From assembly GCA_040954595.2 (NCBI GenBank), contig CM082581.2, positions 3,774,699-3,838,698 of the forward strand: DNA of 64,000 nucleotides, given 5' to 3'. The first letter of the stretch is position 1. Each line of letters opens with the position of its first letter. The notes under the pieces are model-generated. The model saw nothing but the letters and a program-made list of their open reading frames with translations. It had not been told where the DNA came from and ran no database searches. A program made the translations under genes and the position numbers. This document shows positions 10,927 through 64,000 of the stretch, piece by piece. This stretch comes from Balanoglossus misakiensis (taxonomy: Eukaryota; Animalia; Hemichordata).

Positions 10927-12095
10927 TAGATTTGTTGATTTCCAGACTTATCAAATACCACAGACATTAGTAAAATTTTGTCAATGTAAGGACACAAAAC
11001 TGAAAATAAAATGGCATGAAATGACAGAAAGAACACACAAGGTGAGAAAACAGCAAACGGCCTATAGAGGGCTCCCACCTGCAGACGACACAAGCTTAGA
11101 AATTAACAAAAATACTGTATTCCAGCAAATTTAACAGATTTCGATTATTTAACCCTCACAGGTTTGAATTTCTGGTAATATACTCAAATGTACCACCAAT
11201 ATATACATGCACGGTACATCTAGGGGCTTGGGCCTGAAATGGTAAATCTCTATGCTATTCTGCCTTTTAAAATACACCTCTGAGCTGTATAGACACAGTC
11301 TGATCACTGAGTATTTTAAATTGCTTGTTTATTAGTTATGGCATCAATCTGATCTGGCAGGTGGGCCAGCAAGTTTTTAACTGGTCCATGGCAAATGACT
11401 GGTGTCAGACCAGACATCATATTTATCCCTTCAGAGATGCTGCTAACATTGACCATCAGAAAAGATAGTTCTACTCAAGTTCAATTTTTCAGCAAACAGT
11501 GAAATAATAATGAACAGGAAGTAGAGAAAAGCGTGACTTACCCCCGGATGTTGAAGTAGTGCAGGTGGAATACATCCACCACTTGTGTTGTAATGATATG
11601 AACAATAAGCCTCAACAAGATTTGTTCGACATTCGGCACTTGGCACTCTATAAAGTGAAAGTGACAAAACATTTATGCATGTGGCTATGATTCAATTTCT
11701 GCATAGTACATAGTGATTAATTAATATATGTCTCACATCATACATTTGTTATCTTCCACTTAACCAACCACGTAAACATGTACGAACATACATAAATTCA
11801 TTTATTTTGCAACAATTAATGAAAATTCATGCTGATCCATTTTTTTGTTACATTGGAAATAGTATTTATCTTAATGTCTGGTTCTGTTTTTGTAAAACAG
11901 TTTTTTTCAAGTAGTATCCAGTTAATTTTTGAAAATTAAAAAATGAGCTACATGTACTGTTGCAGCAAATTAGTTTGTAATTATATAAATTTATAAAGAG
12001 TATAAATCCTTAGAGCATACCTTCCTAAAATAGACCAAAGAGTGTTGACTGTTTGCAGTTGTGAAGGTGGATTAACTGTACAGATACCACCATAC
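60..12095 (-). CDS. Xylosyltransferase-like (GT14, Core-2/I-branching family) gene, internal exons 12021-12095, 11542-11647, 9214-9313, 8813-8892, 8279-8359, 1861-1968, 711-825, 60-228; continues beyond the left edge
   Basis: All exons have AG/GT boundaries and compatible phases. Spliced translation: YGGICTVNPPSQLQTVNTLWSILGR-VPSAECRTNLVEAYC...PARLAFTLLVHEYPETV-MQLLQSIYKPYFFYCVHIDRRAEEIRQ-VLIEKTQFADNIHILPKDRSFVASWGSYEIVRAELE-CFEELLRMGSWDFTINLSGADLPIRDMDDVAASLAPAR-GHTFLRKNG...CDAHVY...SASQWGVYG. This is collinear with XYLT motifs recalled from memory (RIAFVLVVH, IYHKDHFYYIHVD, WGG, WDFFINLSAADYPIR, CDAH, GSDW). A divergent paralog is more likely than the XYLT1/2 ortholog. Confidence 0.9.
447..644. 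mobile_element. TA-target MITE (Tc1/mariner-type), TIR CTGTAAAACGGG
   Basis: TA|CTGTAAAACGGGTTATTTT...AAAATAACCTGTTTTACAG|TA; related copies at 8577, 14524 and 26428. Confidence 0.8.
2363..2692. mobile_element. TTAA-target fold-back MITE (Kolobok-type purine-purine termini), TIR AGGGACAAAGTCTCT
   Basis: TTAA|AGGGACAAAGTCTCTCTCTCACTGCC...GGCAGTGAGACAGAGACTTTGTCCCC|TTAA; palindromic over most of its length. Confidence 0.85.
3810..4002. mobile_element. Right half of the same TTAA fold-back MITE family
   Basis: Matches 22970-23158; ends GAGACTTTGTCCCT|TTAA. Confidence 0.75.
4668..4674 (+). promoter_or_regulatory. TATA box of the Link-module gene
   Basis: TATATAA ending about 60 bp upstream of ATG 4736. 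Confidence 0.5.
4736..6577 (+). CDS. Secreted single Link (Xlink, hyaluronan-binding-type) module protein, 116 aa; exons 4736-4796, 5338-5622, 6573-6577
   Basis: Signal-peptide exon MKGVLVAAIFVVLSICQAQA|gtaag. Exon 2 is EFSVYHIEGSDGRYTLDYKAAEKRC...ATYEDLEEAWQEGYQLCRKGWLDGQRVAYSMQTAKTNCGNTVGIVDYG...YDVYC, with the four Link cysteines and GWL/YDVYC motifs. Exon 3 completes Ala then TAG. TATATAA lies at 4668 and AATAAA at 6680. Confidence 0.92.
4842..5010. mobile_element. Truncated TTAA-target MITE (family of 15077-15311) in intron 1 of the Link gene
   Basis: TTAA|AGGGAAGGGGTCGTTGTGCCGTGTGGGTGTCCCC...; reverse-complement match to 15145-15311. Confidence 0.75.
5786..6212. mobile_element. Non-autonomous DNA transposon, TAGTC termini, TIR about 125 bp, 9-bp TSD (AcademH-type), in intron 2 of the Link gene
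   Basis: CATTCTGGG|TAGTCTCGGTTACCCAGA...TCTGGGTAACCGAGACTA|CATTCTGGG. Confidence 0.9.
6680..6685 (+). terminator. Polyadenylation signal of the Link-module gene
   Basis: AATAAA about 100 nt after stop codon 6577, followed by T-rich sequence. Confidence 0.55.
8577..8765. mobile_element. TA-target MITE, same family as 447-644
   Basis: TA|CTGTAAAACGGGAAATTTTCG...CGAAAATTTCCCGTTTTACAG|TA, in the GT14 gene intron. Confidence 0.85.
10883..10926. repeat. (CAGA)11 microsatellite
   Basis: Direct reading; it explains the RQTD repeats in the ORF track. Confidence 0.95.
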
Positions 12096-14151
12096 CTGAA
12101 AAATACAATAATTGACACAACATTGAAAATACTTTTATTTCTTAGTTGACTGTCATGATTTGGACTATCACCAAGAACCAAGATTGATCTGAAGTTTGAG
12201 AAAAAAGTTTCAACAGTATGCAATTTTACATAACAAAAACATTATTTTCCAACAGACATGCCTACGGTATCTCTGGAGCATATCTTTACTTTCAGGGCCA
12301 ATAGACACATGACTATAATATATGTACAACCTTCAGAACTCTATTTACACTGAATTGATTTTAAAAAGTAATGATTCTCAAAAACTGCCGAGGGAAATGG
12401 TCGCGATTGAATCCCCGGAATTAGAAATGTTCACTGTTGGACCAGACCCTCAAAGTGATGAGACAGACAATTTTTTTTTTAATTTAAATTTCATTAAAAT
12501 ATCCAGAATAACTTACAAATTTGAGATTCAAAAATACAAGAAAAAATTATGAGGATCGAAAAGTATGTGAAAGAAAAATGATGATGTAAATTATAATATT
12601 TCGTTTAATTTGTATTAGTACTTCAATTTTATAGTCAGCTGATGTATTCCAGAGATGTCACCTCTTTTAACAACTAATGAGCCATCATGTATTCATTAGT
12701 GGCTAAACACTTGTATAAAATAACTTCTCAAATATTTAAGTGGAATAAATTCTCAAATAAGTGGAAACAAGGATCTCACGCAACAGGAACTTCACTCTTT
12801 TGACAGAAAAAAAAATTCAAGCAATTCACAAATTGCACAAAAGACATCACCAGCAGATATGTTGGATTCTTAACTACCGGTACTTGACCTTTGAAATCTC
12901 AATACCCAGAGAATGACTGTTACTCAGAAAATCCCATACTTTTAAACCTGAGTACATCTCACAACACTCTCACACAGACACCTACAGTTAGCTATTTGAT
13001 ACATCTAAAGCTCTTTCTTTTTTGATGGCTTAGATGACTTCCTGAAACGGAGTACAGCCTGCAGGTAGCTGGCAATTAAGTGAGGATTACAGACTGGAAA
13101 CTGATGTCTTCTGCTGACTAGAAATTACAAACCTGTATTGTATGAAAGGGAATAATAAACCATCCCTCTAAGCCTCTCCGCATGATACACATAATACAAC
13201 AATCCGATCAGAAAAAAATGCCCAGTGGCTGAGAGGAAAAGCAACCTGTTTAGACTTCAGTGCACAGTAAGCACATCATCAAATAATTAAGAAATGTCAC
13301 TGTTGATGACATAGTGCCCACTGAGAAATTTTAAATGTCAAACTACCACACACAAAAAAACATCAATTCACCATGCAACAAAAGAAAAGCCGACACTACA
13401 ACAGAAACAAATAAAACTTCATTAGTTAAAGTGACAAAATGTTCATTTACTTTATCAAAGTCAACAAGCAAATGAATTGTACTGGTATTCAACTGTCATT
13501 TATACAGTAGAGTTCCTCTACATGGCAAAAAAATGTGAATACCATTTATCAAAATCATGTAAACTTTAAAAAAATGATATTAAAATGCAATGGTGATATT
13601 TTCATCAAAAATTTGGCACATCATAACAAGGACACCGCTTCCTTCACATCAAATTGCAAAGAAACTGGACCAACAAGCAGCAGACTCTGAAAAATCGGCC
13701 AGTGTCTGGGCATGAAAACAATATCGTCTCAGCCATGTTAGACTAAAACTACCACGCAATTTTGAAAATGTGCGTTGATGTAATGGTCACATGTAGTTAA
13801 GCTGCAGCTACATACATGAATGTGGATACAATGAGATTGTGTTCTTTATAATTTAATCAATGTCTGCATTCCAAAAAAATGTGCAACACAAAGTGTCTGG
13901 GATAATATCTAACCTTGATCCAGAGCTACATTGTATAAAAGTGTTCCACACAAAAAATACGTGCATTGTGACAAAAGAGGTTTTGGTGCAAGAGTAGCAA
14001 TTCATTAATACGCTTGTACAGTATGTATATAACCCTGGATGCATGTGGAGGTTGCCAAGAAATATTGACCCTGTGCTGTCAAATGTTTCAATGATGGCAT
14101 GTTTCACTGACACTGATTGGCTCATCATTATCATGGGGAGAACATATTATG

Positions 14152-14280
14152 AGGTTATTACGAAAATACCGTAAAGTATGCACGAGGACATTAGCGCTGA
14201 GTATCGCCCGACGCGCAGCGGAGGGCGATGCGCTGCGCTAATGTCCGAGTGCATACTTTGCGGTATTTTCGTAATAACCT
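14152..14280. mobile_element. Palindromic hairpin element (Crypton-like, tentative); degraded relative at about 29315-29427
   Basis: AGGTTATTACGAAAATACCGTAAAGTATGCAC...GTGCATACTTTGCGGTATTTTCGTAATAACCT with a GC-rich central loop; no clear TSD. Confidence 0.6.
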
Positions 14281-14523
14281 TATTATTATACATCTTACAT
14301 CTCCGTTAGTTCTTGTGTTGCATGTTACTTGTTTCAAAATGCCGATACAATCGATCGAAAACCGCTCAGTTGACTCAGTGAGCAGCCATCTTTCTTTTTT
14401 GTTTACGTGCGTTGGAGTGGGGCTGTCTTGAAACCTATTGTTCTCGGCACTAGATGTATAATAATATGCTATATACATGTAGTGTCGCCAAATTTTCAAA
14501 ATGACCCGAATACATCTCAAGTA

Positions 14524-14692
14524 CTGTAAAACGGGAAATTTTCCTGATATCAAAAGAGGCAACTGTTACGTGACTATTAATTTTTGTGTTCTCGTATTTC
14601 ACTGCATCGCTATCTTCGAAAAACATTTTTACGCGACTTTTTTATCTTTGGAGCTCTCACGTCGTTCGCAAAAATTTCCTGATTTAATACAG
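14524..14692. mobile_element. TA-target MITE, same family (opposite orientation, damaged right end)
   Basis: TA|CTGTAAAACGGGAAATTTTCC...ATACAG|TA; the interior is the reverse complement of the 8577 copy. Confidence 0.75.
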
Positions 14693-15076
14693 TATTAAAT
14701 GCTCAGTCCACATCAAATCAATATAGAGAATGATGTCAGGTGAAGTTGACATGATATAAACCTGGTACTTGGGCTTGAATTGCATATTTGTGTACTGCAC
14801 GTTGAAATATCACCAGAACTTGAGTTTGACATTCTAATTACAAAATGTGGTGTGGACATAGGAATACTGATTGCAGTTCGAGTTTAGAATTAATCTAGTA
14901 GCAAGACTTCGACCTTTATACGGCAAAACAGTAAGAATACAGTATACTGGTAGTAGTATTTTACCCACAATGTACATTCATATTCAACAGCAGGGCTAAG
15001 GACAGCTGAACTTGACAGCACGGAGATAGATAATTGGACATACATGTATGCCCTTATTTTTCTTTCTATAATTTAA

Positions 15077-15311
15077 AGCGAAGGGGTCGTCGCGCCGCGT
15101 TTGTTTGTTTATAAACATTACAATTCATCCACAAATCCCTGAAATTAGATAATTCTTAGAATGAATGAAGCGGGCAACCGTAGCATAGACTGGGCATGAC
15201 AGCAACTGAAGATCCTAGTAGGTCGTGGCGACTTCAGTGGGGTTTGTGCTGGTATGGGAGGACATAGTCTCATCAAAGGGGACACCCACGCGGCGTGACG
15301 ACCGCGTCCCT
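15077..15311. mobile_element. TTAA-target Kolobok-type MITE
   Basis: TTAA|AGCGAAGGGGTCGTCGCGCCGCGT...ACGCGGCGTGACGACCGCGTCCCT|TTAA. Confidence 0.8.
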
Positions 15312-15344
15312 TTAAGCTTACTGATCTCATCTGAACATTATTAA

Positions 15345-15947
15345 AGCCCCAGTATTTCTCGTGTGTATCCATTTTTCATCATCGAAAAAAGCCCGTTTTT
15401 CCCGTACATCCATCATGGAATACTATATAATGAAGATGTAAGAAAGGTTTGGGCAATTGTAGCTACATGCAAGCCGAAAATATCGCCCGTAACACTTGAA
15501 ATGATGCGCGGGTTTGTGTACAACGGAAATGTTGCACATGTCGATCAGCAAACGTGCCACTTTGACATTTTGATGGTCAGACCATTTTCGGATTTGATCT
15601 GGTTCCATCGACTGATTTCTCCCATAAAGTTATCTTCCCAAAATTTCGCCGAATTAGTGCGCATTTCTTCGCTGAGTCGCTTGATTTGGGGCGACCAAAC
15701 CTCTTCCGCATAGATTCACATTTGAGTGCGCATGCGCACTAGTCACGTGTGTCAACATAAGCCTGACTCACGTGACTTTCTGTCCGGACAGAAAGTCATT
15801 CTTCACTCGTTATATTGTAAATTGTATGAGTTTATCAGCAGAGCTGGGGATGATGACTGTTCGATTCAGTATCAATTATCATCTACTTTTAGAAATTATA
15901 GATGCCGTTTCAAACAAAATTTTGCCCCTACGAGAAATACTGTGGCT
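15345..15947. mobile_element. TTAA-target Kolobok-type non-autonomous element, long (603 bp) form
   Basis: TTAA|AGCCCCAGTATTTCTCGT...ACGAGAAATACTGTGGCT|TTAA; shorter derivatives at 50397 and 55231. Confidence 0.85.
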
Positions 15948-17156
15948 TTAAAGCTGGCAGAATGCTTTAATTTTATCACTGATAATCTTGAATGATAATT
16001 GCACAAAATTGACAAAAACCACAATATAATATGGTCAATCACTCTAATTATCTTATTATCATGATCAGATAATTATTTTATAGCTCCGTTTTTGACATCA
16101 CGAGGAGCCAGAAACTGCAATTTTATCATCAATTACGTCTCATAAGTCTACATTTCCTGTTAACGGTAATTGATAATATTTATTTTCTTGCAGGCTACTC
16201 AGGGAGAACATGGACTGCAATGACAGATCATGTTTTATTGTCTGATTAATTTATCAATGAGAAGCAAGATTTACCCAAGCATTCATCAATAAATTGGAAT
16301 CTTGTCTTGTATTGCACTCCTTACAAATTCGGCCACCATTTTATTCATCTTTAATGTTTCAGTTCATCATTTTGATCTGAAAAATTGTTAATCTCCTTCA
16401 AACGATTATTGTGATCTGTTACCATGACATTTCACTTCCTTTGTAGTAAATCTTTTTGGAACCCATGGATTTATAGCGCTATTTCATAATTCAAACATGA
16501 CTGAAATCTTCATAAATTATATACAAAGATGACCAATGTAAAGAGAAATAATGCAAACCAATTTCTTTCTACATGAAAACACATCACTGCAAGAAAAACA
16601 TGTTGATCATGTTAAAGGGAGAGAGTCATTTTAGTTTTTTTATAGTTTATTTATCTTGTTCTGTTCACTGACCAGTTATTAAAACTCAACTCTCGCCCAC
16701 AAAATTTAAGTATGATTATGTTGGCAAATATTTTCCTCAATTACAATAATACCTGCTTCATGACAATTTGCTCAGATTTCATAACAATTTGAACAGGTAA
16801 AAACAACCTAATTATTTATATAATTGTATTCTAAGAGTGAAACAACCATTTTGGAAGTTTTTTTACTAAAATGGAAAACATTAATTTCCTGCAAAATTAA
16901 ATATTTTGGACTCAATTTTAACAAATCTGACTTAGATCATCCATAGAGAGCTGGACCTGTATTCTGAATATTAAAAATGTATGACCAGAAGTCAACTGTT
17001 GATGGCTGGGCGGACATCGGATGCGTCTGAATAATCAGCTTATCTGATAGGCTCTGTATTGCTGACAGCAGAGTTTATAAAATACAGAAAAAACATACAT
17101 GAAAAGATTTAGAGGGAACAGATTATGCATTGCATGATTCAGTAATCTCCTCTTAA

Positions 17157-17503
17157 AGGCTGACAACCATCTTGTGTGCATGTGCGTAATTTCGTGTGTG
17201 CAAACAAGTTACATTCAATCCAAATGTTCTGCAAATTTTGCGTTCATCACATTCAAATAGTGGCCTGCCTTCGCTTCCTTCCAAATTTCATGCGCACTGT
17301 ACATAAGTACATTTTGTAGACTTTAGTTTTGTCCCTTCTTTTCACCCAATTTGCTGTCTTTTCCCGATCTCCGACACAGACTATGGTCACCACCATCTTG
17401 TCTGTTGTTAGGACAGCATGCTGCCTTAGGGCATTGGCTGTATACAATTTTTTGCAACCAGAGTCTCTGGTTTGGCACATGCGCATAAGATGATCATCAC
17501 CCT
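17157..17503. mobile_element. Degraded TTAA-target MITE
   Basis: TTAA|AGGCTGACAACCATCTTGTGTGCATGTGC...GCACATGCGCATAAGATGATCATCACCCT|TCAA, an imperfect TIR of about 29 bp. Confidence 0.6.
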
Positions 17504-17879
17504 TCAATTTTAGTGGATGAACTTACATGATTCTTCAATCTCACTTTTGGTCCAGAAATTTTGGCCTATCATAATTTTTTTCTTTTCATCAGATATAGTG
17601 CACATAAATAATTTATCATAAAGACAAAGATGGCAAAATCATGGAGCTAAGCTTACCAGTAGTAGATACATTTTTTATGCAAGTACACCGATTTACAGAA
17701 TAATCTTCCTATCCAAAATAATCCAACTAACATACAAATGTAATTTTCGGGATTTCAGCATGTTTTATTAAAATGCCTAGGGTATCACATCAAAAATTTG
17801 TGTCTTGTATAAACTGGTGATCATTGTCATCATATCTGAGCACCTCTTACTGGCAAATCACCACAAACAAATTGTGGTC

Positions 17880-17984
17880 GGGAAAGTAATTTCAAATAAA
17901 GCAATCACGTAGGCTGTTATGAAAAATTGGCTGACTAGGTGTTGTGACAGGCTATTTGATTGGCTTATCGGAAATTACTTTCCC
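17880..17984. repeat. Imperfect inverted repeat, probably a MITE relic
   Basis: GGGAAAGTAATTTC...GAAATTACTTTCCC with arms of about 40 bp. Confidence 0.5.
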
Positions 17985-18765
17985 ACAGTGTCCAAGCAAA
18001 AAGTACTCAACATGAAATGTGGTTCGAGTTGCAGTAATATCTTTCGGAACTCAGCGGTTTTTTTTTTGGCAATTTGGAAGAACGAGTAAATTATGGCTCA
18101 AAATGCGAGAGTGTATTTAATGATAGTTCACACCAGTAATTTTCATGTCTCTGGTAGTGAATTACGCATTATAGATACTGTTTGTGAGTTGAAATGTTTC
18201 TGTGTGACCTATTAGGTACATGTACTGTAGCTCAAATCCCTTGAGTATAAAGTATAGGAATATTATAGTGGTTGGGTAGAAAGTTTGAGTATAGGTCCAG
18301 GGCATTGTGTGTGTGATGTTCTCAGTGGTCTGGCTTTCATTTTACATTTTATGCTTTATTCATGTCTTTATTTAAACAAACATACATTTGAACTATTTAG
18401 CTATGTTGGTATTTACTCCATGTATTATGTATGTATTCATTAACAAACAAGCAAAGTTTAATACCAACACAATCAGTGCCTGTGTTCTCAGTGTGAATGT
18501 ACATCTGAGTTGTTAGTACAAGCTGTCTCCATAACGTAACAAATGCCAGTAAAATGCTCACTGACTAAGATCATTCAAAAACATCATTATAATTTATGTG
18601 ATCATCTGAATCAAAACCAATACTGTAATATTTACCATGTGCAGCGGCCGGTACAGGAACTGTAACAGATGCATGCTATAGCAAATCTGTATTACTGCAT
18701 GATCCGAAACTAAATAAACCTAATCTATTATTAATCCAAACTGGGGAATATTTGCAAAACTTTAA

Positions 18766-19121
18766 AGGGACCAAGTCTCACTCTCTGCCCTTTTTCCATG
18801 GCATTAATTATGTTTGATACAAGACACCGTTTATGTCTTTCCAAATGTGGATATACACATGTACATGTATAGTGAATCAATGTTCAACCACACACAACTT
18901 CCATCCCTCTTGTAGACACGAGAGTGAAAAACTTGCCAAAATGAATAATCAATCTCTACCATTTATTCATTTTGACAAGATTTTTACTCTCATATCCTAC
19001 AAACGGGATGGAAGTTGTGTGTGGTCGAACGTTGATTCACTATATATCCACATGTAGAATAACATAAACATTGTCTTGTATCAAACATACATAATGGAAA
19101 AAGGACAGCGAGAGAGAGACT
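18766..19121. mobile_element. TTAA fold-back MITE, same family (right tip lost)
   Basis: TTAA|AGGGACCAAGTCTC..., interior collinear with 2363-2692. Confidence 0.8.
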
Positions 19122-20643
19122 ATGCCAGATGCATAACACTTCATAGAAATGTTGCTATTCAATTGATCATGCTACAGTATCAGCAACAATGACAAGAGGA
19201 CCACGCAAACTGCCATTTAAAGATTACAGCAGGCAAATTGAAATGAATAACAAGATCTTTTGAAGAACAGCTAGGGCGTCCAATTTTCTAAACATGGCAT
19301 GTATGTAGAGTTTCTGGTGTCCTCAATAAAAATTGTCATCCTCTGTCAGAAATCACTCACCAAAAGTGTCCATAAAGTTATATTTTATAACAACACCAAT
19401 GGCAATCATCTTGGCTGAGTTGGAGAGGACTGATTGAACTTTTATAAAAGAAACAACATACATGTAGTGAGCACAGTGTGGTCATCCAGAGAGTTGGTAC
19501 ATGTACATGGTCCAATTTTGAACACAGTTTCTTTTTAACATCAATTAAACCTCACACAAGTCCCTTCTACGCCACAGCTTCCATTTTTATGCAAATTTAG
19601 GTGATTCTATCGCCATTCAACTCGTGGAAAAAATCAAAAATTCAGATTCTATGGAAAATCTTTGTTGTAATCCTGGGGTATCGATCGCACGGCCTGAACA
19701 TCGGATAAGCTCCTTATGTTGCAAATCTGCAGATCGTCTAAAGGTTACAGATTAAATGTGATTTTTTGTAGCCACTTCACAATAATAAAAGACTATCAAA
19801 GCCCCTAGAGCTGCCAAATTTCACATCTTTTTCCACAGTAAAATACTTCGAATATATTCCCTATCCTCTAAAATCCTCACCATATTACTTGTATTTGCAT
19901 CAGTTTGTCATCTCTTGGCGACGCGTACTATGATAGCTGCATACTGTTTGTATGGAGGCTGATTAAATTGACGCGGCACAGTTTTAATACATAGCGTGTT
20001 CAAATTGCAACATGCAGTCACAATCGGGCATCGATAAGGTGTTCATGTATACATTGATACCAGAAATACATTGATAAGGATATAGGCAAGAGTTCGTTTC
20101 ACTATTTGACACAGCATGGTGTCTGTTTACCAACTCAATTTTCAATTCATCAGCAAAGGGATAATTTTTCCCCCTAAAGCACATGGGCAGTTAAAATCAT
20201 GCCCAATATTGTTCAGTATAAAATTACTCTTCTGATTTGCTTGATATAAAAGTTTGTTGGGAGTAAAATGAAGTATACAATAGAAGATATGTGCGACTTG
20301 ATTACAGTGGGAGGCGGGGTCTGGAAAACAAGCTTACAAGTTCTGAGAAATCACAGAGGTCTGAGGAGATTTTGAAAACTGGCATTATGGAAATCAGATA
20401 CATATAAAGCTACATCCAGATGTAATCCACCCTTTAGGTAATTGTATTCAGTTACATGGCATTGATGCCAATCCCTGCAGAAGTCTGATAAGTTATTCAT
20501 ATTTGTCAAAATATCATCAATGTTTCCTTGGAAACTGTAAGAGGAAGATTATTTATAAGAAAGTGTAATGAGAATATTTTACATGTAATAGAAGCCATCA
20601 AAAAAGATTCACAACTTATCCATTTTGTCACTAGCTGTATTAA

Positions 20644-21305
20644 AGGGGAAGTATAGTCCGGCTGATTTCTACATAATTTGAGGTCACTGTTCGAAAAATA
20701 ACATTTTCGCCATTTTTTTTACAAAAATGAGGAAAAATTGGTAGAATTTCCAACATGGCGTTTACTGTAATTTTAATCATAGGAAATACATGTAAGCGCT
20801 AGGTCTAACTTTAGCCAAACATGATATGAGTGATACCATTTTCAGATTGGTATCACTGCACACCAATACATTTCTAATCAAATTCCTTGGACAAATAATT
20901 GTTTTTTTACAAAAGAGTTGTCAATAGTAAACCAATAGAAAGTTCTTTCAATGAATTTTATTGTGCTATTATCATCATTTCAGTACCAGAAGTGTTTGTT
21001 TGTTTGCTTTGGTTCTTAAAGGAGCAGATTTAAGAAAATTGACTTGAAGATTTATAACTGCCACCTAGCAATTGCAATGGTCAAAAATGTAACAAAACAA
21101 TCTGAAATTTGTTTGTTCTGTCAATATTAAATATCGTGCCTTACAAATTATTTTTTTTTACACTTTTGTCATTAGCAAATTTGCGTAATAACACTTACAT
21201 ATTGAGAAGACTTCCACACATTCTTTTTTACTTACACTATTTAGAAACAAAGACAATGTCAAAATGATAAACTGAAAAGAGACATGTATTTGATATACTA
21301 CCCCT
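20644..21305. mobile_element. TTAA-target Kolobok-type element
   Basis: TTAA|AGGGGAAGTATA...TATACTACCCCT|TTAA (short TIR only). Confidence 0.55.
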
Positions 21306-22823
21306 TTAACACATTTTCCCAAGATGACTAACTACATTCATAGCTTGCAGAATTTCAAATGATATTTCTTGTGAACATCACAAGCTGAAGGTATCTCGAT
21401 AATAGAATATATATGTATTTTGACATTTTTTGTTTTCAATAAAAAAAATAATCCAAAATTATGAAAAATTTTGGGTTTATCAAAAGTGTAGCAAGTTATC
21501 TTTCTACTCACTGAAATGTTCGATGTCTTTATTTAAAGCAAAATGTTTTATTTTAAAGTTTAATTAGCACAAAATAATATAAAAACACTTTTTGAATTTA
21601 TGCACATACTTTTTGAGGGACGGTCAAGAAATGTGTGCACAGCGCATTGTCTATTTTAAAGTATTCAACCACTCATTTCACTTTTGTAATCCCACGGCAT
21701 ATTTACATTTGTTTAGTTTGCTAGAGAGTCAGTTTATTTACTATGACCAAATGCAAATCACATCTACAGGGTACCTTGTTGTGGTGTTGTGATGGAAACG
21801 TAAACAAACATACAGATCTCCCTAGTTCTACTCCACTGAGTCAGAGGTGAATCATCTTGACAAAATATATATGCGGTCGGAACAGTACGGTTGTGTAGCT
21901 TCATATTAAATACAATGAACACAATGTAGAAACTGAGTCTGTTTGGATATTTGATGATATGGATGAGTGTTATCATGACATAGATTGACTAGAGAATAAA
22001 TCTGGGTATTTTCTGTTCTGCTTGTGCATGTGATAAGATGTCAAGACTGAATAATAACTACAAGAACAGGTAATCAAATAAATTCATAAACATGTCATAA
22101 TCATGACAAATAATCGCATAAAAATTAAAAGTTTAAATAAAGATATCACGCTAATTTTTGCTGTGTTTTCACCCCATACAGGACTGTCTTGAGACTTCTT
22201 ACAACTTTATGGGGCAAAAATATATCTTAATTTAGATAGAAATGTTTCACAAAATCACTGTTTTCTTCATGCTTTTGACATCTCTAGAAGCTTCAAAACC
22301 AACTTTCACAGCAAAAAAGAAGTACCGGTAGCTTCTAGTATAGGATTTTTACCTACGGTAACCAAAAAATGTCTAAAAACACTATTTTGCTAACTTTAGC
22401 ATATAATCATGTGTATCAGAGCAAAAGGGAGCTAAATACACAAAATATCCGACACATAAAATATGATACAGAAATACATGTCGACACAATCTGATGCAGG
22501 TTCCACATTTACCAATATGTCTTTTTTTTCTTTTGTCCTCAGACCCAGCTGGTGACATGTTAATCCATGGCATTGAAAGGGCTGTTCCTACAACACAGAT
22601 TTACATTTGACGTGATACATATATTGTAATCAAACATATTTGGCTGCATTTTTAAAGGGTGACAGCTGTCACACTACATGTACATGTGACCAAACCAACA
22701 AGTATGTAGGAAAAGTACACTGGAAAGAGTTAAATGTAACAATTTTTTGCATTATGAAAATATTATAACATTCAACCCTTGTCCTGCCATGGGTGTGCCA
22801 CCTTGCCAAGTACATGTAGTTAA

Positions 22824-23158
22824 AGGGACAAAGTCTCTCTCTCGATGCCCTTTTTCCAATAATTATGTTTGATACAAGACACCATTTATGTTATTTTACA
22901 TGTACATGTGGATGTTGACTTCACACAACTTCCATCCCGTTTGTAGGATATGAGAGTAAAAACTCACCCAAAATGAATAAATGGTAGAGACCATTTATTA
23001 ATTTTGGCGAGTATTTTCACTCTCGTGTCCACAAGTGGGATGGAAGGTGTGTGTGGTTGAACGTTGATTCACTATATATCCACATGTAGAATAACATAAA
23101 CGGTGTCTTGTATCAAATATAATTAATGGAGAAGAGCAATGAGAGAGACTTTGTCCCT
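22824..23158. mobile_element. TTAA fold-back MITE, same family
   Basis: TTAA|AGGGACAAAGTCTCTCTC...GAGAGAGACTTTGTCCCT|TTAA. Confidence 0.85.
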
Positions 23159-25164
23159 TTAAGGGAATTGTCGAATATTCTCTGTCAAAAAATGAAGAAA
23201 ACACCCCACATTTCAGGATAAATTGCTCTGTGATGAGGCTGCAATTTTTCTGAGTGCCCATTTCCTTTGCTAGGCAAATTGGTGCTGGTCATGTATGTGG
23301 ATAGGATCCCAACAGTAGACACTCATATATCACTGGAATAGATTACATCACCTGCTCAAAACAACAATTTTTTCCACAAACACCATCACGACTAGGAGAG
23401 GCTTTCTGGTTATATACATGTAAGGCCTGAGATTGATTTTCAGGTTAATGTCGTTTCTACAGGTCCTGAAGATAGTAAGATTAAACAGCATGCCGTCACA
23501 CATGCCGATTCTGAACTGTACATTGTACATGTAAGACTGAAGAACATTTCTGACAAGGTAGGACATCTAGCAGAAATATCTCAGAATCAGCATGTTTGAC
23601 ACCTGAGTAAAAAACGATGTGATCACGGAATCCGATAATCTACTTTAGGTCTCTGGACTACGTGTTTTTTCACACATTTGCTCACTCACAATTACGTCTA
23701 GCCATATGCCCAAGATACATTTTACCAAACCGATAAATATGGCTATTTGCATGTCAAATGACTCCAACCAAGGAAACCCCGGTCACTGCATCACCTGATC
23801 ATGATTATGACGTCATAGAAGTCAATCAGTCAACCTGAACCACATGCCATTTCTCAGCTTATACCAGAAACCATGTTGACTTTTCATTGAACCAAATTTC
23901 CAATTTGGGGTACCACATGACTAAAAGTCACAAACTTTAATTTTGATCTGCCCTTTCATCAGGCAATTTGTCACTGAAGCAAATATCACATGTCCTGGTA
24001 GTAAATTCAATTTCAGCAAATTTTATTTATACGTCTGGAAGCTGTGTTTGGATTGTAAGTCACAAAACCAGTCCAGCAGCTGTCACAGTAATCACAACAC
24101 GATTAGTTTTCTCGTCTATGCCCTACCACCAACTGCTGCTTCTTATATTTACAGTCGACTGCCTGCTTGGTTCAAATATGTAAAACTGCAATCAACAAGG
24201 ATGGGGTTAGTTTTTATCGAGAGGGATGGGGTTAGTCAAGGTCTTTATAAAAATATTATAAGTCTTTCCTCAGTTAAAGGGACATTACCTGTAACTTTTA
24301 GCTTTATTTCAAGTACATGTATGTGTGTAGCGACCATTGTTGTTGTTGACAAATGAATTCTAGTCCGGACTTGAATTCCAATTTTGCACAATAACAATGC
24401 TGACTATACACATAAGTTGGTTGCTAAGCTAAATGCTGGGTGTTTCATCTTATTTCATGCTTGAATTTGATCAAGAATCAGCAGTACATGTAGGCGCACA
24501 CAAAAAACACCGAAGTCATAGCAAAAAAGTTGCTCAGCTAATGGAGCTTTAACAAATTATTGTCACTGCAGACAAAGGAGAAGGTATGTTGGTGTGAAAT
24601 ATCCAATCAGCAGGCATGTCACACCTACCAACACTTGTACAAGTACAAGGCTGGAACAAATAAGTTTTGGCATGTTTCACACAGCATTTGTTTTAAACAA
24701 TTTTATCAAGTGTTTGACAACAGAGATGGCTATAAATTGTTGTGAAATCCTAAATTATCCCAACTTGTTCATGTTCCAGTACTTTTAATGGTGTCTACAG
24801 TACATTTTACCACTCAATGTTTGTGATTCAAACAAGACTTATCTCACGATTAGCAATAAAAAACTAATGTCAAGGGCACTTTACCATATACCGGTAGTTT
24901 ATCAGTTATAGCAATAGAGTGATGAATTTCCTGCACAAAATCACTCAACCACAGTGCCTTTAGAATAACCGTAGATAAACACAATGAATGAGATACATGT
25001 AGCTGATTAACAAATCTGATAGAAAACACCCTGCAACGCAAAGCAATTTATGACAATTAGAATTTTTCACTAAAACTTATCAAACATAAAACATCCCTGA
25101 GACAATGAAAACCAAATTCAAAGGCAATTGTGGTTGGCAATCAGACCCAAAATACAATATTTAT

Positions 25165-25288
25165 CTTTACGGCCCTGATACAGGATTTGTAGATCGAGGT
25201 TGTATGGCAGAAGCGCCGACTGCAGGGAAGGCGCGAACGCCTTACCGTAACAATCGAGGTCCACAAATCCTGTATCAGGGCTGTAAAG
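25165..25288. mobile_element. Palindromic hairpin repeat element
   Basis: CTTTACGGCCCTGATACAGGATTTGT...ACAAATCCTGTATCAGGGCTGTAAAG inverted arms. Confidence 0.55.
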
Positions 25289-25394
25289 GTTTTACCATAC
25301 TGGTACCATAAATATTTGGCACATGCGTATGACACGATCGTCACCCTTTAAAATACCATATATACCAAGAACTTATCATTGTACTGTCTTTTAC

Positions 25395-26210
25395 CGAAGA
25401 TAATGCTGCTAGAATGCTTTCAAAACGTTGCATTTCCAAAGTCAGGTATAGGATGTTTGCAAATTTCTTGAGTGTAAATGTCGATAAGACTGAATTTGTT
25501 ATTTTTTCTTCTATTTCAGGTCATCTGTCTGCCAGAGGGATTACATGTACAGTAATTGCTCTGACTCCCGTCCATTGTCGGACTAAGAGCCTGGAAGTCA
25601 TCCTTGACTCTTTGTCTGACAATGAAACCACATATTGCACACATCTGCCGTTCAGTTACTTTTCATTTGCGTCGTATTGCACTTGTCCGTAAACATTTAC
25701 ATGTATCTCAACCAGCCACAGAGCAATTAGTTCAGGCTTTTATTAAATCTTGAAAAGATTCATGTAATTCACTTTTATTTAGGCTCCCTAAGTACCAGAT
25801 GAGCCGTATTCAACGTGTTCGAAAGATTGTTGCTAGAATTGTAACTCGTTTCAAAATCACCTTTCACATCACTCCAATTTTTGTATCAGTTGCATTGGGT
25901 ACCTAGGCTGTTTCAAAATGTAATGTTTTCAAGATTTTACTTCTTATTTTCAAATCCATTCATAGGCTAAGACCAATTTATCTTTCAGATATGACCAAAT
26001 TATATGTTCCAAATCACAGCTTGAGGTCAGCTGATCAGTTCAAACTCTGTCCTGTTCAATCATGTACTAAGAAATATGGTGATCATGCTTTTACTTTTGC
26101 AGCTCCTATTCTTTGGAATAATCTCCTGTTAAAATCCGTCAGTCACCAAATGTATCTGCTTTTAATTCAAGTGTGAAAACTCTTACTTCTTAAAACTGCT
26201 TTAACTAATT
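25395..26210 (+). mobile_element. Degraded 3' fragment of an L2/CR1-group LINE (ORF2 C-terminus)
   Basis: Broken frames read LSVNVDKTEFVIF, KSLEVILDS, YFHLRRI, HITPI..QLHW, FKILLLIFKSIH, YVPNHSLRS, YGDHAFTFAAPILWNNL, with frameshifts and stops. Confidence 0.85.
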
Positions 26211-26427
26211 GTTTGTAGTATGTTTTTCTTTTGTTGCGTACTTTTTTGTATTTTATTGCTTTTTAACTTATTTTCATAGTGTATTTTTATATCAGCATCC
26301 TTGATCACATTTTTGTGGAGACTCACGCTTTAAAAATAATGATTGTTATTACTCCCTGTTATAAACCAGCAATGTCTCCCACTATAATGAAGACACCTAC
26401 CAGATGTCTGCTAAGCTCATTTAAATA

Positions 26428-26627
26428 CTGTAAAACGGGATCGGAAATTTAAGTGAATGATACATTGCGAATTTCACGAGAGCAAAAAATATGAAAATAA
26501 AAAGTCACATAAAAATGTTTTCCGGAGATATCGATGCAGTGAAATACAAGAAGGAGAAAATTAATCGTCACATAACGTTAACAGTTGCCACTTCTGATCA
26601 TTATCGTGAAAATTTCCCGTTTTACAG
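26428..26627. mobile_element. TA-target MITE, same family
   Basis: TA|CTGTAAAACGGG...AAATTTCCCGTTTTACAG|TA. Confidence 0.8.
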
Positions 26628-29600
26628 TAGTAAAATAAATGCATTATAATCACTAGCTTTGGGCAGATTTGGCAAATGTCTGACGAGGCCAATGTTCTCA
26701 AGTTTGCCATCAAGGTCTTGATCTGATTTTCTTTTGTAAATTCTCTACTGATGTACTCCATAAACATTCACAAGCATGTCAAAATCATTCATACCACACG
26801 TTCTACATGTAGTGCTGATTCAAGTCCGTTGGATAAAACCCTTTGTAAAACTGTCACTTTCCAATTCTCCTCTGAAAAGGAAAGGTCATTATCTGGAACA
26901 ATTTACCAGCCACAATTAGATCAGCTGCTTCACTTTCAGCATTTTGTCAGTTTGTTTGTTTGTTGTTCTTGTTTGCTGTATATTTCATTTCATTTGGGAG
27001 ACTGACTTTGTATAATGTCTACATATGGGTGATTTGCACCTGTTTCAGTCATCACATCCTATGCAGATATACTTTCTGCATTTTACATGGATGGATTATA
27101 AAAAATAAATAAATAAATAAACAAATAAAATCATCACTTTAGTCTTTAGTGACACCTACGGACCCCCACCCACACCCTGACACACACTGTCAAATGCACT
27201 TCACATCCATCACTCTAAATGATTTATTTTCCCCATCTCTGCAATTACTGGTAGGCCATAACCTTTATAACACTGGCAGCAATTAAGTTTTGATTTCCAT
27301 TAAATATATTCACCATCATTATTATTATTGGCACTTAAGTTAAATAGTTATTTCCAACTGCAATTAGTGAAAGCAATTACAGATGTACGGTAATTAGATA
27401 GCTACCTGTACCCAGTGTGGTTTGAATACTATTGACAGGAATCAGACAATCAAAGCCCATTAGCTGTATCTCTTTCTATTTTTTGGTACAATAGGGTGAG
27501 CTCAAAAGAAATGTTTGCAAAATTGTTAACCAAAGTATGATCACCAGTTCATTTTCAAACACTGGCGGTGAATGTACAACTTGGATTTCAACATATAATT
27601 TACATGTGTATGACTCACTTGCAAGACATATATGGTTGCCATCAGCCAATATAAAACAATACTTGAAGTTGATCAATCCCAACTATCAGGAAGGATTGCA
27701 ATAAGAAAACTTTCAAAGGGATAGTATGGCTTAATTAATGATGGGAATTCAAAACATATATTTAAGGTGGCATATTTTGGGTAAGAAAACTGGAAAAAAG
27801 ATACAGTTTGGCTAGGGGCTTATAAAAGTCACTTATTTCATACTTTAATAACTAACATTGAGTTAATACAGACAAGTCATTTATTTCAGACAGATAAAAA
27901 TGACATGTAGGATAGTACTAAAGGTGATATAAAAATATGACACTAATTTCAATAAACTTGCCAAAGCGCCATGAGCTGCAACTCGATAAAATTTGTTATG
28001 CTTTAAATAATCTCGAATATGCTTTTCATTGTGTCTATTAAATGATATTGCCTGATAGTATATCAAGATAACACTTATTTATGACAAAATGTCCAAAAAT
28101 TAAATGACATATCAGTACAGTCAAGAATTTCCACAATTTTTACAAAAGTGAAATATGCACAATGAAAAATTATAATGCAATGTCCCAATGGAATGCATAG
28201 TTTATGAAGTTCGAACGAGAGGAATGCAACATTTTCATTGAATTTTCCATTTTTCCACGATGGCCGCCGCATTATCTGGTAAAAACTAACTTAGGGTTTA
28301 TAAATATAATACTTGTATATACTTCAGTGCATACATCTGTATGGGATGATTGAAAAAAGTTTGAAAAAAAAATCATGATTATGGATAATATCCAAGTACT
28401 AGTAGTTGCAGCTCATTGGGCTTTCAGTACTACAGTTGTAAAGAAGGCAAGTCTACACATGAAAACATCAATTGAGAATGATGGACCTGAAAATTGTATA
28501 ACCACAACACATACCGGTATTTCCCCACTATGAAACTATTATTGATAAATTGGTAATTATTAATATTTACACTCTGAGCATGCCAGCAGGTGTAGATGTC
28601 AGGGACCATGAATTGATTGATCACTAGTGGACAGATTATGAAAATAATGATGTAAATAGTTTTCAGTGGCATTTTGTCTAATTCTCTTATCAATAACCAT
28701 TGGTACACAAACACTGGAGTGCACCCCTTGGAGTCGCACAGTAAATAAATTTTAAACAAATTAATCAATCTTGTATTTCTGCATGCATATACATTATTGA
28801 GAAAATACCATTTTTTTAGTTTCAAGAAATATTTTTAAATTTGTACAGAGGAATAATAGGTTAAAAACCTATAAATTGAGAAGAAATTCACACACCAATT
28901 ATTTGAAATAAAGTGTTATGTATACAGACACATAATCCAGCAATTTATCATAATATTTTTTATCTACAGTTGTCAGTTGAGAACAGTAAAAATCAGTGTT
29001 CACTAAAATCATATCATGAAACTCTAGCACTGTAACACTATTGGGACAGTTTCAAGTCACCTCACTCAAATTACTAACATGTCCCTGTTTGGCAACTCAT
29101 TCTCTAAGTTCACTTTTAAACGGTTTCAAGGAACCCCAATGCACATTTTAATATTTATTTCCTATCCATACTTCAAATAAATATACAAGCATGAATATAA
29201 TAATCAGCCCATGCTGACTTTTTAGAATGTTTTATTCCCTCATTTTAGATGCCTGGGTCTGACCAAGACTGCACTGGGGTAAGAAATCGGTGTCACAGGA
29301 CTCACATGTATAACAATAAGATTATTGCGAAGATACGGTAAAGTATGCACTCAGACATCAGTGCTACACACTGTGATTTGCTGCACTGATGTCTTTATGC
29401 ATATTTTGCTATATTTTCGTAATAATATTGTACTGTAGGTGAATTTAAAATATTCCAACTTGTGCAGAAAAAAAGTTTCTTTGAATCTTTCAAGCAGAGG
29501 CAAATGACACTACCACTTTTCTTCATCTTTGGCCCTGGTTCTAACCTAACCTCTTATTTTTCTGTAAGGAAGTGTAACCTTTTCCTTTAATTCCTTTCTC

Positions 29601-30887
29601 AGTTTCAAAATATCCTTTTTCCGGTTTACTTGTAAACCATGTAGGTATTTATAACTTTGTATGTTCTTACAACCCTCATAGGTTGTACCATCAGTTATTT
29701 TTTTTACTCCAAGAATTTTTTCAATTTTAAAAGATCACAGGTAGTTAGCCCCAGAAATTAAACCCAGAACTCATTTGCATATATATGTGCATATAAATTG
29801 ATATTTGTACATATATTTTGTGACAATTTTATTCAATCCTTCATTTTGATTTCATGGCAGACAAATTGCTCCTCAAAGTTTATTACAAAATGGCATTATG
29901 AAGGAACTGTTTTCACTAAACATTCTCATGATATGTGGCTACTACCTCCATACTAGGTCTTCTGATTGACCACTTGTGGAGTTCTCATCCACATAATGAA
30001 AATATTTTAGGAATACAAAGTATAATGTACTCAGACTGAATGTCTAATCTCTCAACGTCCTTGCACGTTTATAAGACTCTGATACCGAGAATTATCTCGG
30101 ATACTGAGAATCATCATACTATTAAATTCCAAGGGTTACAGCAGCAGGTGTGTATGTGAATTATCTTGATATTCACTTGATGAATAAAATTCAATTCTGA
30201 CTTTGACAGTGTGGGTGTGTGAAGGACCAATTAACCCTGAGTGTGTGCACACATGGGTTACCATTTAGTGGCACTGGCCAAACATAACTGTCAAGGGGAA
30301 CAGGTATAATGGGCAGTAGAATGGCAATTAGACCTGGGTTTCATTTTTCTCTGTGTGCAATTATAGACAGCCCTTGAGAGGAAGCCCTTTAATTCAGCAT
30401 GACCCTAAGGGGATGGTCAGTGCATTAATTGATTGGGTGATTTGTAATGTATTTTCCATGCACCGTTCTTTCAGCATGTCCTGCGATTATATTAAGCAGC
30501 TATACAATTCATATCACCGTTGTCAGGGGTGACATCAAGACGAGATTAATTTACAGTTCTCCCATGTAACAGGTTGCACTACCCAACCCCTGGCCCCCAA
30601 TCTTCGTGGAGAGTGGATTGAACCAATTATTAAAACTCTGACGCTGCGGGTACATGTATTGTAATTAGGTTTGTCTTGGCCTGTGGTATATTGTGTGAAA
30701 ACGTTAAATCACCAAGGGTGAATGTGCGTTCTTTCTATATAAAAAAATACCTGTGTGTTCGAACGTAGCCAAAGCAAATGGCCATTACATAATCAGTGTT
30801 TAGTCAGGCAGTCTGTAGTCTGTTTGTAAATGTGACAGCTATTGTCAACATCTCACTCTCTCTCAGCAAACCCAGTCATACACTCAC

Positions 30888-31666
30888 CCTGAACTGTAAG
30901 CTTCTCTTGGTGATGGACAACTAACACCAAAAATTTCTTCTTCGGGAATAAACACTTGTAAAAGCGACACGGCTACATCGTCTGTGTTATCGTCATTTAC
31001 GTAAATATACAACACTTGGTCACGTCGTCTGCGGACACTTTCGGTCCACTGTTTGTTTGTGTTGTCCTCTATGTAATATTGAGAAAACAAAGTGTCTTTT
31101 GCACAAGTCACCCTCATATCAAGCAGTTTCCTCTGTCCGGGCATCGGGTCGTTGGCACACACCTCTATTGTCGCCTTAAAGAGGCAGGCTTGGTATCCAA
31201 GACAGAAGAGTACGGGGTCACAACTTGACAACGTGTCATCCATGTTATCACCAACATTGGCATTCCAGAATCCCCGAGACTTCTTCTCGCCCGACTGCCT
31301 TTTCAGGACAATTTCCCTGTTCGTGATACTCAGCCGGGGAATGTCGTTCAACTTGAAATGTTGCAGTGAGCTGCCGTAGTATTTCTTCATGCCAGAGAAC
31401 ACGTACGACAGCCCGGAAATAAACGTACCCCTGGGACACAGCACTGCGACTCTCTTGTTTTCTTGCCATTTGTAAGTTTCTTCGTGAACGCTATCAACTG
31501 TCTGCTCGTACTTCACTTTCGGTGGGTCCACGAAGGCTCGACGATTGTGGTTCGGATCGCCGTTCGCCGCTGCCCTCTGAGGAATCTTCACTGCTGGTAT
31601 GGGCTGGAAGCCCTGAGAGGTGGCTACAACCAGTAGACAGACTACTGGGAGACATACCTTCCACAT
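30888..31666 (-). CDS. First coding exon of a secreted or lumenal protein (signal peptide, degenerate SUEL/rhamnose-binding-lectin-like domain, RRRR site); probably exon 1 of the GT14 gene
   Basis: 779 nt from ATG 31666 (MWKVCLPVVCLLVVATSQG) to a strong donor GG|GTGAGT at 30888/30887, phase 2. CLGYQACLFKATIEVCANDPMPGQRKLLDMRVTC resembles the SUEL C-x-G-x3-C...DPxPGxxKxL...C pattern. The phase matches the acceptor at 12095. Confidence 0.8.
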
Positions 31667-38373: not shown

Positions 38374-40793
<2,420 letters not shown>

Positions 40794-42013: not shown

Positions 42014-42445
42014 TAGTCTCGGTTACCCAGAGCCCTCTGCTTCTTCCGTTAGGCACTCCAGAAAGAGGGTCTGGGGAAGCCCGGTAGACAAATCGCCGGG
42101 CCGACTCGGGACAGATGCGATGCATGACGGGAGATTAATATTCGATACAATATTATGATATGACGATATTAGAAAACTATTTACCAAACTTCTCTCTCTC
42201 TTTTCAATTTGTAGACAGTTTTAGCAGGTCTAGCACTTCTCAGCATGTTTTCTTTATCGTATGTCATACATGTCATGTCTGCCGTGAGGTTCGCGCGCAG
42301 GACGTCGCCATTTTGGAATATTAATCTCCCGTCATGCATCGTATCTGTCCCGAGTCGGCCCGGCGATTTGTCTACCGGGCTTCCCCAGACCCTCTTTCTG
42401 GAGTGCCCAACGGAAGAAGCAGGGGGGTCTGGGTAACCGAGACTA
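42014..42445. mobile_element. Second copy of the 9-bp-TSD TAGTC element (inverted relative to 5786)
   Basis: ATGGTGAAC|TAGTCTCGG...CCGAGACTA|ATGGTGAAC; empty paralogous site at 57602-57610. Confidence 0.92.
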
Positions 42446-63725: not shown

Positions 63726-64000
63726 AAATATGCAAAGAAAAAATGTGTCAAATAATCAGTGATGTCAAGCAAAAGCAAAATCATAAACTTAATATTAAAA
63801 TGTGAAGAATAAAAGAGATATACCGGTATATCAAACTAAATGTTGAACACCACCCACGCACGTGAGAAGCAACTAATGAACTGATCCCAGGAAACTATAC
63901 TGGACTTGAAGGATCTATTGCAAGTGTTTTTTTCATCATCAAATGCATATGGTATTATCAAATATATTGCAAATTGACACCTTCTTATCTGTTATAGCCA

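Follow-up and report, generated by a model that had tools for sequence, protein, structure and literature searches.

A predicted SUEL-fold domain joined to a GT14 glycosyltransferase in Balanoglossus misakiensis and other invertebrates

The DNA analysed here, referred to as the window, is a stretch of 64,000 nucleotides (nt) from the hemichordate Balanoglossus misakiensis (assembly GCA_040954595.2, contig CM082581.2, positions 3,774,699 to 3,838,698 of the forward strand). Judged by their sequence, nine exons on its minus strand are the first half of one protein, a glycosyltransferase of family GT14 carrying an N-terminal domain of predicted SUEL fold. The exon of this domain and the GT14 exons are joined across 18.8 kb, and sequence comparison with homologues confirms that the join is real. 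Within CAZy GT14, XT1/XT2 (XYLT1/2), Drosophila Oxt and C. elegans SQV-6 are the peptide O-xylosyltransferases, which add xylose to proteoglycan core proteins at Ser-Gly sites and so begin the proteoglycan chain, and they provide the main reference for the catalytic part of the protein.

Gene model, exon join and family

The nine exons and the first intron are the following.

30888..31666, minus strand: coding part of exon 1, 779 nt, from the start ATG, ending in phase 2 (83% identity to Ptychodera flava protein P0002)
12096..30887, minus strand: intron 1, 18,792 nt, phase 2, GT-AG, in a position apparently conserved across the family
12021..12095, minus strand: exon 2, 75 nt, phase 2 to 2, where the XT1-like N-terminal helices begin (homologue alignment)
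11542..11647, minus strand: exon 3, 106 nt, Cys-containing helix with the C276 equivalent
9214..9313, minus strand: exon 4, 100 nt, linker ahead of the GT-A core
8813..8892, minus strand: exon 5, 80 nt, first strand of the GT14 domain
8279..8359, minus strand: exon 6, 81 nt, region with the HID motif
1861..1968, minus strand: exon 7, 108 nt, W392 equivalent (SWG)
711..825, minus strand: exon 8, 115 nt, Branch/GT14 core (NLSG)
60..228, minus strand: exon 9, 169 nt, ending in phase 2, with the SQW motif at the XT1 D494/W495 position

Exon 1 starts with the ATG at 31666 and encodes a signal-peptide-like start, a flexible spacer, the SUEL-like domain and then a helix and a two-strand linker, ending at the donor GG/gtgagt (30888, phase 2). 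The acceptor of exon 2 is pyrimidine-rich (...ttttcag) and opens the reading frame in phase 2, and the codon for the Arg equivalent to XT1 R270 is split between exons 2 and 3. Exon 8 alone matches the Branch domain (PF02485) with E 2.1e-4 and 21.4 bits, below the curated cut-off of 23.4. The gene runs past the window end at position 60, with about 600 further codons outside.

The earlier note on this DNA had proposed the join between the donor at 30888 and the acceptor at 12095 from the shared phase 2 and the open joined frame. Both observations hold, since the nine exons (31666 to 60) give 538 codons with 0 stops, all introns being GT-AG and compatible in phase. A phase match alone is weak evidence, and the join is accepted because homologues span it. 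Of 536 residues, 466 (87%) are identical between the model and P. flava P0002, and the alignment has one gap, of 2 residues and close to the N-terminus, but none at the exon 1/2 junction. In tblastn searches the residues of four homologues are colinear over exon 1 and the downstream exons. A second gene or an alternative first exon inside intron 1 was sought and not found: family homologues gave no tblastn match starting between 12.5 and 30.5 kb, and 0 of the 115 stop-to-stop open reading frames (ORFs) of at least 48 residues in the intron matched Pfam. Rfam and transfer RNA scans of the whole window returned 0 hits.

Homologues covering both halves of the protein, whose existence the note had left to be checked, are numerous. 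Used alone as query, exon 1 retrieved four hits among longer proteins, from P. flava (83% identical), Glandiceps, Saccoglossus and krill, all of them with a Branch (GT14) domain. The family profile recovered 33 proteins at E 1e-40 or better, and the exon-1 and GT14 domains occur together in 31 of them; of the two others, one begins immediately ahead of the GT14 domain and one is a fragment of 370 residues. Both domains are also carried by 17 of the 19 profile matches kept out of the building of the domain profiles. Among named proteins the fusion was found in Hemichordata, Echinodermata, Cephalochordata, Arthropoda (chelicerates and malacostracans), Annelida, Nemertea and Brachiopoda, seven phyla in all, and no vertebrate, insect, nematode or mollusc appears among the named family matches (names were looked up for 19 of 74). 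It is also carried by whole ORFs of 1081-1314 residues on contigs of 4.4-6.3 kb, which are too short for introns and are therefore probably transcripts. In Holothuria leucospilota the NCBI models are split, at a point that lies inside the GT14 domain rather than at the lectin junction.

Against this background, exon 1 can hardly be credited with being a separate secreted lectin gene, with the GT14 exons having a first exon of their own. It is true that exon 1 can read through its donor to a stop two codons on, and that many database records (190-460 residues) contain only the exon-1 part and end at the junction point. However, among the 23 short homologous records that end no more than 40 residues from the last exon-1 Cys, 16 stop at the exon-1-terminal Gly, several of them on long genomic contigs, as ORF calls entering a conserved phase-2 donor would do; the shared end point is therefore read as a conserved phase-2 intron. 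Moreover, the junction is spanned by the named proteins of the seven phyla and by the probable transcripts, and the searches of intron 1 yielded no alternative first exon. An intron-retained short isoform of exon 1 is possible.

A quick tree of 30 hand-picked rows, comprising family members only and cut to the first 1000 residues, grouped the deuterostomes (Shimodaira-Hasegawa-like approximate likelihood ratio test, SH-aLRT, 100) and the arthropods (SH-aLRT 99), and therefore fits vertical descent. The sequences are thus consistent with the SUEL-like plus GT14 architecture being that of an old family inherited from a bilaterian ancestor, which the earlier note overlooked. Spacer length and the length of the insertion within the domain are highly variable across the family. 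Database labels of its members read “uncharacterized” or, automatically assigned, protein xylosyltransferase, and no published description of a SUEL-GT14 fusion or subfamily was found in the titles and abstract openings of a largely open literature.

Some members deserve separate mention. P. flava has a second, divergent member (P0043) besides P0002, and Capitella teleta has two (P0049 and P0064) with adjacent accession numbers; both pairs, each from contigs of equal length, are probable tandem paralogues. Protein P0040 (879 residues), an exon-1-like ORF, contains about 600 residues of Gln/Pro-rich repeats between a signal-like start and the SUEL-like domain.

The N-terminal SUEL/RBL-like domain

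Three features of exon 1 concern the domain and its putative sugar-binding residues.

31094..31492, minus strand: SUEL/RBL-like domain, residues ~59-191 (AlphaFold2 model, Foldseek, VIA, and ESM Atlas on homologue P0004)
31460..31462, minus strand: E69, equivalent of latrophilin-1 Glu42, putatively sugar-binding (offset from the 6ska_D alignment)
31127..31138, minus strand: G177 to K180, equivalents of latrophilin-1 Gly117 and Lys120 in loop 2 (alignment offset)

The assignment of a SUEL-like domain to exon 1, made in the earlier note from the letters alone, is upheld on the predicted structure. The domain has six cysteines and a variable insertion at about residues 93-148. An AlphaFold2 model of exon 1 built from 69 sequences reached a predicted local distance difference test score (pLDDT) of 82.6 and a predicted template modelling score (pTM) of 0.74. 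Compared by VIA with 48,161 chains, its top six matches were all SUEL/RBL domains (latrophilin lectin domains, CSL3, SUL-I and the C-terminal domain of rice beta-galactosidase 1) with Z 5.9-6.8, the first unrelated fold scoring 3.7; in the best superposition (Z 6.8) the root-mean-square deviation (rmsd) was 1.8 Å over 81 of 98 residues. The Foldseek search that the note had suggested gave the LAT-1 lectin as best match (E 7e-4, prob 1.0), and in the ESM Atlas the language-model features of homologue P0004 fell in SUEL clusters (0.85-0.89). Together, these predictions support a SUEL/RBL fold for the exon-1 domain.

Two results weigh on the other side. The VIA scores for the SUEL matches stay below 8, the level at which the tool considers a single match safe, and the Pfam SUEL profile (PF02140) matches 16 of 61 homologues only below threshold, at 14-17 bits against a cut-off of 31.4. 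In addition, Pfam gave 0 hits on exon 1, the SUEL model had 0 hits on the window protein, and the sequence profile of the domain found no SUEL structure in the PDB. When the profile was compared with that of P0096, a canonical triple-SUEL protein, the match was weak, with a probability of 42.6% over 43 columns, all in the C-terminal half. Because Pfam is blind to the lectin-fold module, the database labels hide it. The domain shares with the canonical SUEL/RBL group (PF02140; latrophilin, CSL3, SUL-I, rice beta-galactosidase 1) the predicted fold, the putative Glu42, Gly117 and Lys120 equivalents and the Asp-Pro of loop 2, and in rice beta-galactosidase 1 an RBL fold is likewise appended to a carbohydrate-active enzyme. 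It departs from that group in having six instead of eight cysteines, a Cys ahead of the loop-2 Asp-Pro, no YGR motif and a long insertion, in scoring below the Pfam cut-off and in being fused to a glycosyltransferase.

Latrophilin-1 holds its sugar by Glu42, Tyr63, Gly117 and Lys120, and the changes E42D or K120R abolish binding nearly or wholly, as reported in PMC2430599. The VIA alignment of model residues 62-190 with residues 35-130 of the latrophilin-1 chain (6ska_D) places E69, F90, G177 and K180 on these four positions. The Glu, located 8 or 9 residues before a Cys, is kept in 62 of the 62 sequences that reach it (7 of the 69 rows are without the segment), and in loop 2 the Gly is kept in 53 and the Lys in 64 of 69. 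This pattern makes it plausible, as far as sequence and model go, that the SUEL-like domain binds sugar.

Several points count against sugar binding. The Tyr63 position is Tyr in only 3 of 69 sequences, being mostly Phe or Leu; Arg65 and the C41-C71 disulfide are absent from the domain; and YGR and DPC each occur in 0 of the 69 aligned sequences. The residue equivalences themselves come from the end-point offsets of one structural alignment together with sequence spacing, not from coordinates. Furthermore, the Lys has also a structural role, and receptor RBL domains have been argued to bind non-sugar ligands (PMC2430599). It could be imagined that the enzyme is xylosyltransferase-like and that its SUEL-fold domain does not bind sugar, serving as a structural lid or, like the RBL domains of latrophilins, binding a protein, either partner or substrate. 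Tyr63 and Arg65 are lost, as are one disulfide and the YGR/DPC motifs, and loop 1 has given way to a long, variable insertion; this would agree with such a role, as would the presence among the closest structures of RBL domains solved with bound proteins (teneurin, TOL-1); the high pTM (0.79) of the full-length P. flava P0002 model fits a tight packing of the domain on the enzyme. Yet the Glu is never Asp in the 62 sequences, and Glu to Asp is the change reported in non-binding receptor domains (PMC2430599). The loop-2 Gly and Lys are also kept, and new, near-invariant polar residues appear in or near the same segment (Q159 in 69 of 69, R179 in 66 of 69). A domain of this non-sugar-binding kind is considered unlikely, and sugar binding is retained as a plausible function.

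Past the domain, exon 1 encodes a tetrabasic stretch.

31022..31033, minus strand: RRRR, residues 212-215, unconserved, inside a predicted helix

The stretch is present as the earlier note had seen it, but the idea that a proprotein convertase could release the lectin domain there is not supported. It is very improbable that a convertase cuts at RRRR, either freeing the lectin domain or activating the enzyme as removal of a pro-domain would. Besides the window sequence, Saccoglossus has RKRR at this position and basic residues are common in the helix. However, R-X-K/R-R is found in just 3 of 66 aligned sequences, being absent from Glandiceps and from P. flava, whose exon 1 is 83% identical, and RRRR lies within a confidently predicted helix (residues 205-216, pLDDT 88-96) that is followed by two strands. 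Regulated release of the lectin domain at this site is therefore unlikely.

The catalytic part, its topology and its possible function

Residues of the catalytic part are given in the numbering of human XT1, as derived from structure 6EJ7 (PMC5992326) and a profile alignment. In homologues P0002-P0005 the Pfam Branch domain scores 80-92 bits against the cut-off of 23.4. The description of this part as xylosyltransferase-like, given in the earlier note, is supported: it is nearer to XYLT than to the core-2 GlcNAc-transferase (GlcNAc, N-acetylglucosamine), the family profile giving 178 bits for human XT1, in a match that includes its two N-terminal helices, versus 90 bits for C2GnT-L. The P. flava model is likewise closest to XT1 (Foldseek E 3e-28; VIA Z 29-30), the GT-A domain of C2GnT-L matching at Z 26.2 with an rmsd of 3.0-3.8 Å over about 280 residues. 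Identity to XT1 in the structural alignment is only 16-21%.

Among the 33 long members, W495 and E529 are kept in all 33, W392, R598, K599, D570, C563 and C572 in 32, and R270 in 30. The catalytic Glu (XT1 E529, C2GnT-L E320) is therefore kept in 33 of 33 homologues, its codon in this gene lying outside the window. C563, C572, D570 and R270 correspond to parts of the XT1 flap hairpin with its two disulfides and of the R270-D570 salt bridge, but one of these disulfides is lost, and the K461-Q462 constriction of XT1 is not kept in P. flava. The complete xylose pocket of XYLT is not found, W392 and W495 being kept but D494 not.

Several differences from XT1 count against xylose transfer. The D494 position is Asp in 0 of 33 members and Gln in 27; in XT1 this residue contacts xylose and is needed for activity, according to PMC5992326. 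C574 and S575 of the donor-contacting strand are replaced by Gln/Lys and Gly, and the C561-C574 disulfide is absent, both cysteines missing in all 33. A further reservation concerns the 3′ half of the gene, which the window does not cover.

The Xylo_C domain is described as the hallmark of the glycosaminoglycan-initiating xylosyltransferases (PMC5992326). Pfam Xylo_C had no match in the homologues searched, and the ESM Atlas gave no usable match for the C-terminal lobe of P0004. The strand order of this lobe in the model fits a cystatin-like plus an Ig-like arrangement, and VIA aligns model residues 245/269-990 with XT1 253-959 (436-527 residues, rmsd 18.6-20.9 Å). As the alignment reaches the end of XT1 at about 20 Å rmsd, a Xylo_C-like third lobe is likely present, either in another position or misplaced in the model.

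As to topology, the protein begins with a hydrophobic segment.

31610..31666, minus strand: signal-peptide-like segment, residues 1-19 (hydropathy 3.25 over residues 4-14; predicted helix 5-18)

Cleavage after G19 is inferred by eye from the sequence, and the body of the protein would be lumenal whether or not this segment is cleaved. Hydropathy points to two hydrophobic segments at the C-terminus of 27 of the 35 long homologues, with a short and mostly basic loop between them; in the P. flava P0002 model the segments correspond to helices 1083-1105 and 1117-1141. One of the 35 has a single such segment, and the 7 that have none, possibly incomplete models, count against the tail anchor. XT1 and XT2 are type II proteins (PMC5992326), a topology with a single N-terminal anchor and a stem, unlike the predicted arrangement with two C-terminal segments, and the two-helix tail predicted from sequence and model is new here. 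Because the predicted topology and D494 differ, the family falls outside the XYLT class; from its sequence it is a GT14 member that most likely works like XYLT.

In comparison with XT1/XT2, the family has in common the Branch GT-A domain, the two Cys-anchored N-terminal helices with the R270-D570 pair, the active-site flap, W392, W495, E529 and R598-K599, and a post-GT-A region that aligns in order with Xylo_C. It differs by the N-terminal SUEL-like domain, by a start resembling a signal peptide and a predicted pair of C-terminal helices where XT1/XT2 have a type II anchor, by the change of D494 to Gln, the loss of one flap disulfide and of the K461-Q462 pair, and by lacking a Pfam Xylo_C match, with the third lobe placed differently in the model. 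The core-2/I-branching GCNT enzymes, exemplified by C2GnT-L (2GAK, 3OTK), share the metal-independent GT14 GT-A fold and the same catalytic Glu, but C2GnT-L is without flap, Arg-Lys pair, C-terminal lobe and lectin domain, and reaches half the profile score of XT1. Among the peptide xylosyltransferases, Drosophila Oxt carries a WSC domain according to the earlier note, a point on which the literature search gave no relevant paper.

In the model that we propose, which is given about an even chance, the protein would be a tail-anchored, lumenal, metal-independent inverting transferase that moves xylose from uridine diphosphate (UDP)-xylose onto an extended peptide, the attached lectin-fold domain gripping a sugar of the acceptor. 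The enzyme would sit in the secretory pathway on its predicted C-terminal two-helix anchor. Transfer to the protein acceptor would be inverting and metal-independent as in XT1, with the E529-equivalent Glu acting as base and the Arg-Lys pair engaging the diphosphate. Xylose is the suggested donor because the W392 gate is kept. Retention of the flap hairpin suggests an extended peptide as acceptor, and since the K461-Q462 constriction is not retained, the sequence preference probably differs from that of XT1. The lectin-fold domain would remain attached and bind a sugar already present on the acceptor, and may in this way select or densify glycosylation sites, by analogy with the lectin domain of ppGalNAc-transferases.

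This analogy between the SUEL-like domain and the ricin-type lectin of the ppGalNAc-transferases (GT27) is plausible. Both would combine a peptide-modifying GT-A enzyme with an appended lectin that possibly steers it to glycosylated substrates, whereas the ppGalNAc-transferases belong to another GT family, are metal-dependent and type II, and carry their lectin at the C-terminus as a beta-trefoil of unrelated fold.

The same architecture could serve another chemistry, with a different UDP-sugar as donor (glucuronic acid, GlcNAc or galactose) or with xylose transferred onto a glycan, the lectin binding a glycan acceptor. The position of D494, which is never Asp, the residues at C574/S575 and the K461-Q462 constriction, all unlike XT1, leave room for it, as do the low structural identity to XT1 and the fact that GT14 includes core-2 GlcNAc-transferases, whose GT-A domain matches the model at the Z given above. 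Against these stand W392, which excludes hexoses in XT1 (PMC5992326) and is retained in 32 of 33 members, and three features that XT1 has and C2GnT-L is missing, namely the N-terminal helices, the flap and the Arg-Lys pair. A different chemistry is regarded as a sizeable but rather doubtful alternative to peptide xylosylation.

To our knowledge, the known animal GT14 enzymes are either xylosyltransferases or branching GlcNAc-transferases, both of them type II. The family adds a third GT14 architecture, which shrimp and horseshoe crab share with starfish and amphioxus, and the key residues of its lectin-fold module are nearly invariant across it. Since the same fusion, predicted to be tail-anchored, occurs in seven phyla, it likely marks an unstudied step of protein glycosylation in invertebrates. 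If active as predicted, the enzyme would point to a glycosylation route without a known enzyme in marine invertebrates, including farmed crustaceans and sea cucumbers, and would be the second instance, independent of the first, in which a lectin steers a peptide glycosyltransferase. A broader reading, offered tentatively and held to be somewhat improbable, is that the family represents an ancestral bilaterian second O-xylosyltransferase, lectin-guided and C-terminally anchored, which would read a sugar mark on proteins and start or extend a glycan that vertebrates, flies and nematodes do not make, having been missed through gene loss in those model lineages.

Other features of the window

On the plus strand, antisense inside intron 6 of the GT14 gene, an exon-like ORF (5316-5729) encodes a full Link module (PF00193, E 8.5e-26) and shows sites resembling an acceptor near 5338 and a donor near 5623. 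It probably belongs to a gene, nested or overlapping, whose product binds glycosaminoglycans, and no other Pfam-detectable plus-strand exon was found below 12095 in 63 of the 71 ORFs of at least 40 residues. Farther along, also on the plus strand, a unit of about 4.85 kb is repeated in tandem over positions 37400-60800, in copies 82-96% identical, and collagen-repeat and CTHRC1 C-terminal exons occur there at 39017, 49450 and 50076. Several CTHRC1-like genes, divergent from the GT14 gene, are clustered in this array.

The dispersed repeats at 5786-6212, 42014-42445, 2273-2696, 3764-4009, 18762-19124 and 22732-23162, of which some have inverted arms, are probable non-autonomous DNA transposons; at 42 kb the element of 5786-6212 has an inverted copy with 95% identity. 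Positions 61914-63728 are occupied by local repeats, about 300-370 bp long and 86-94% identical.

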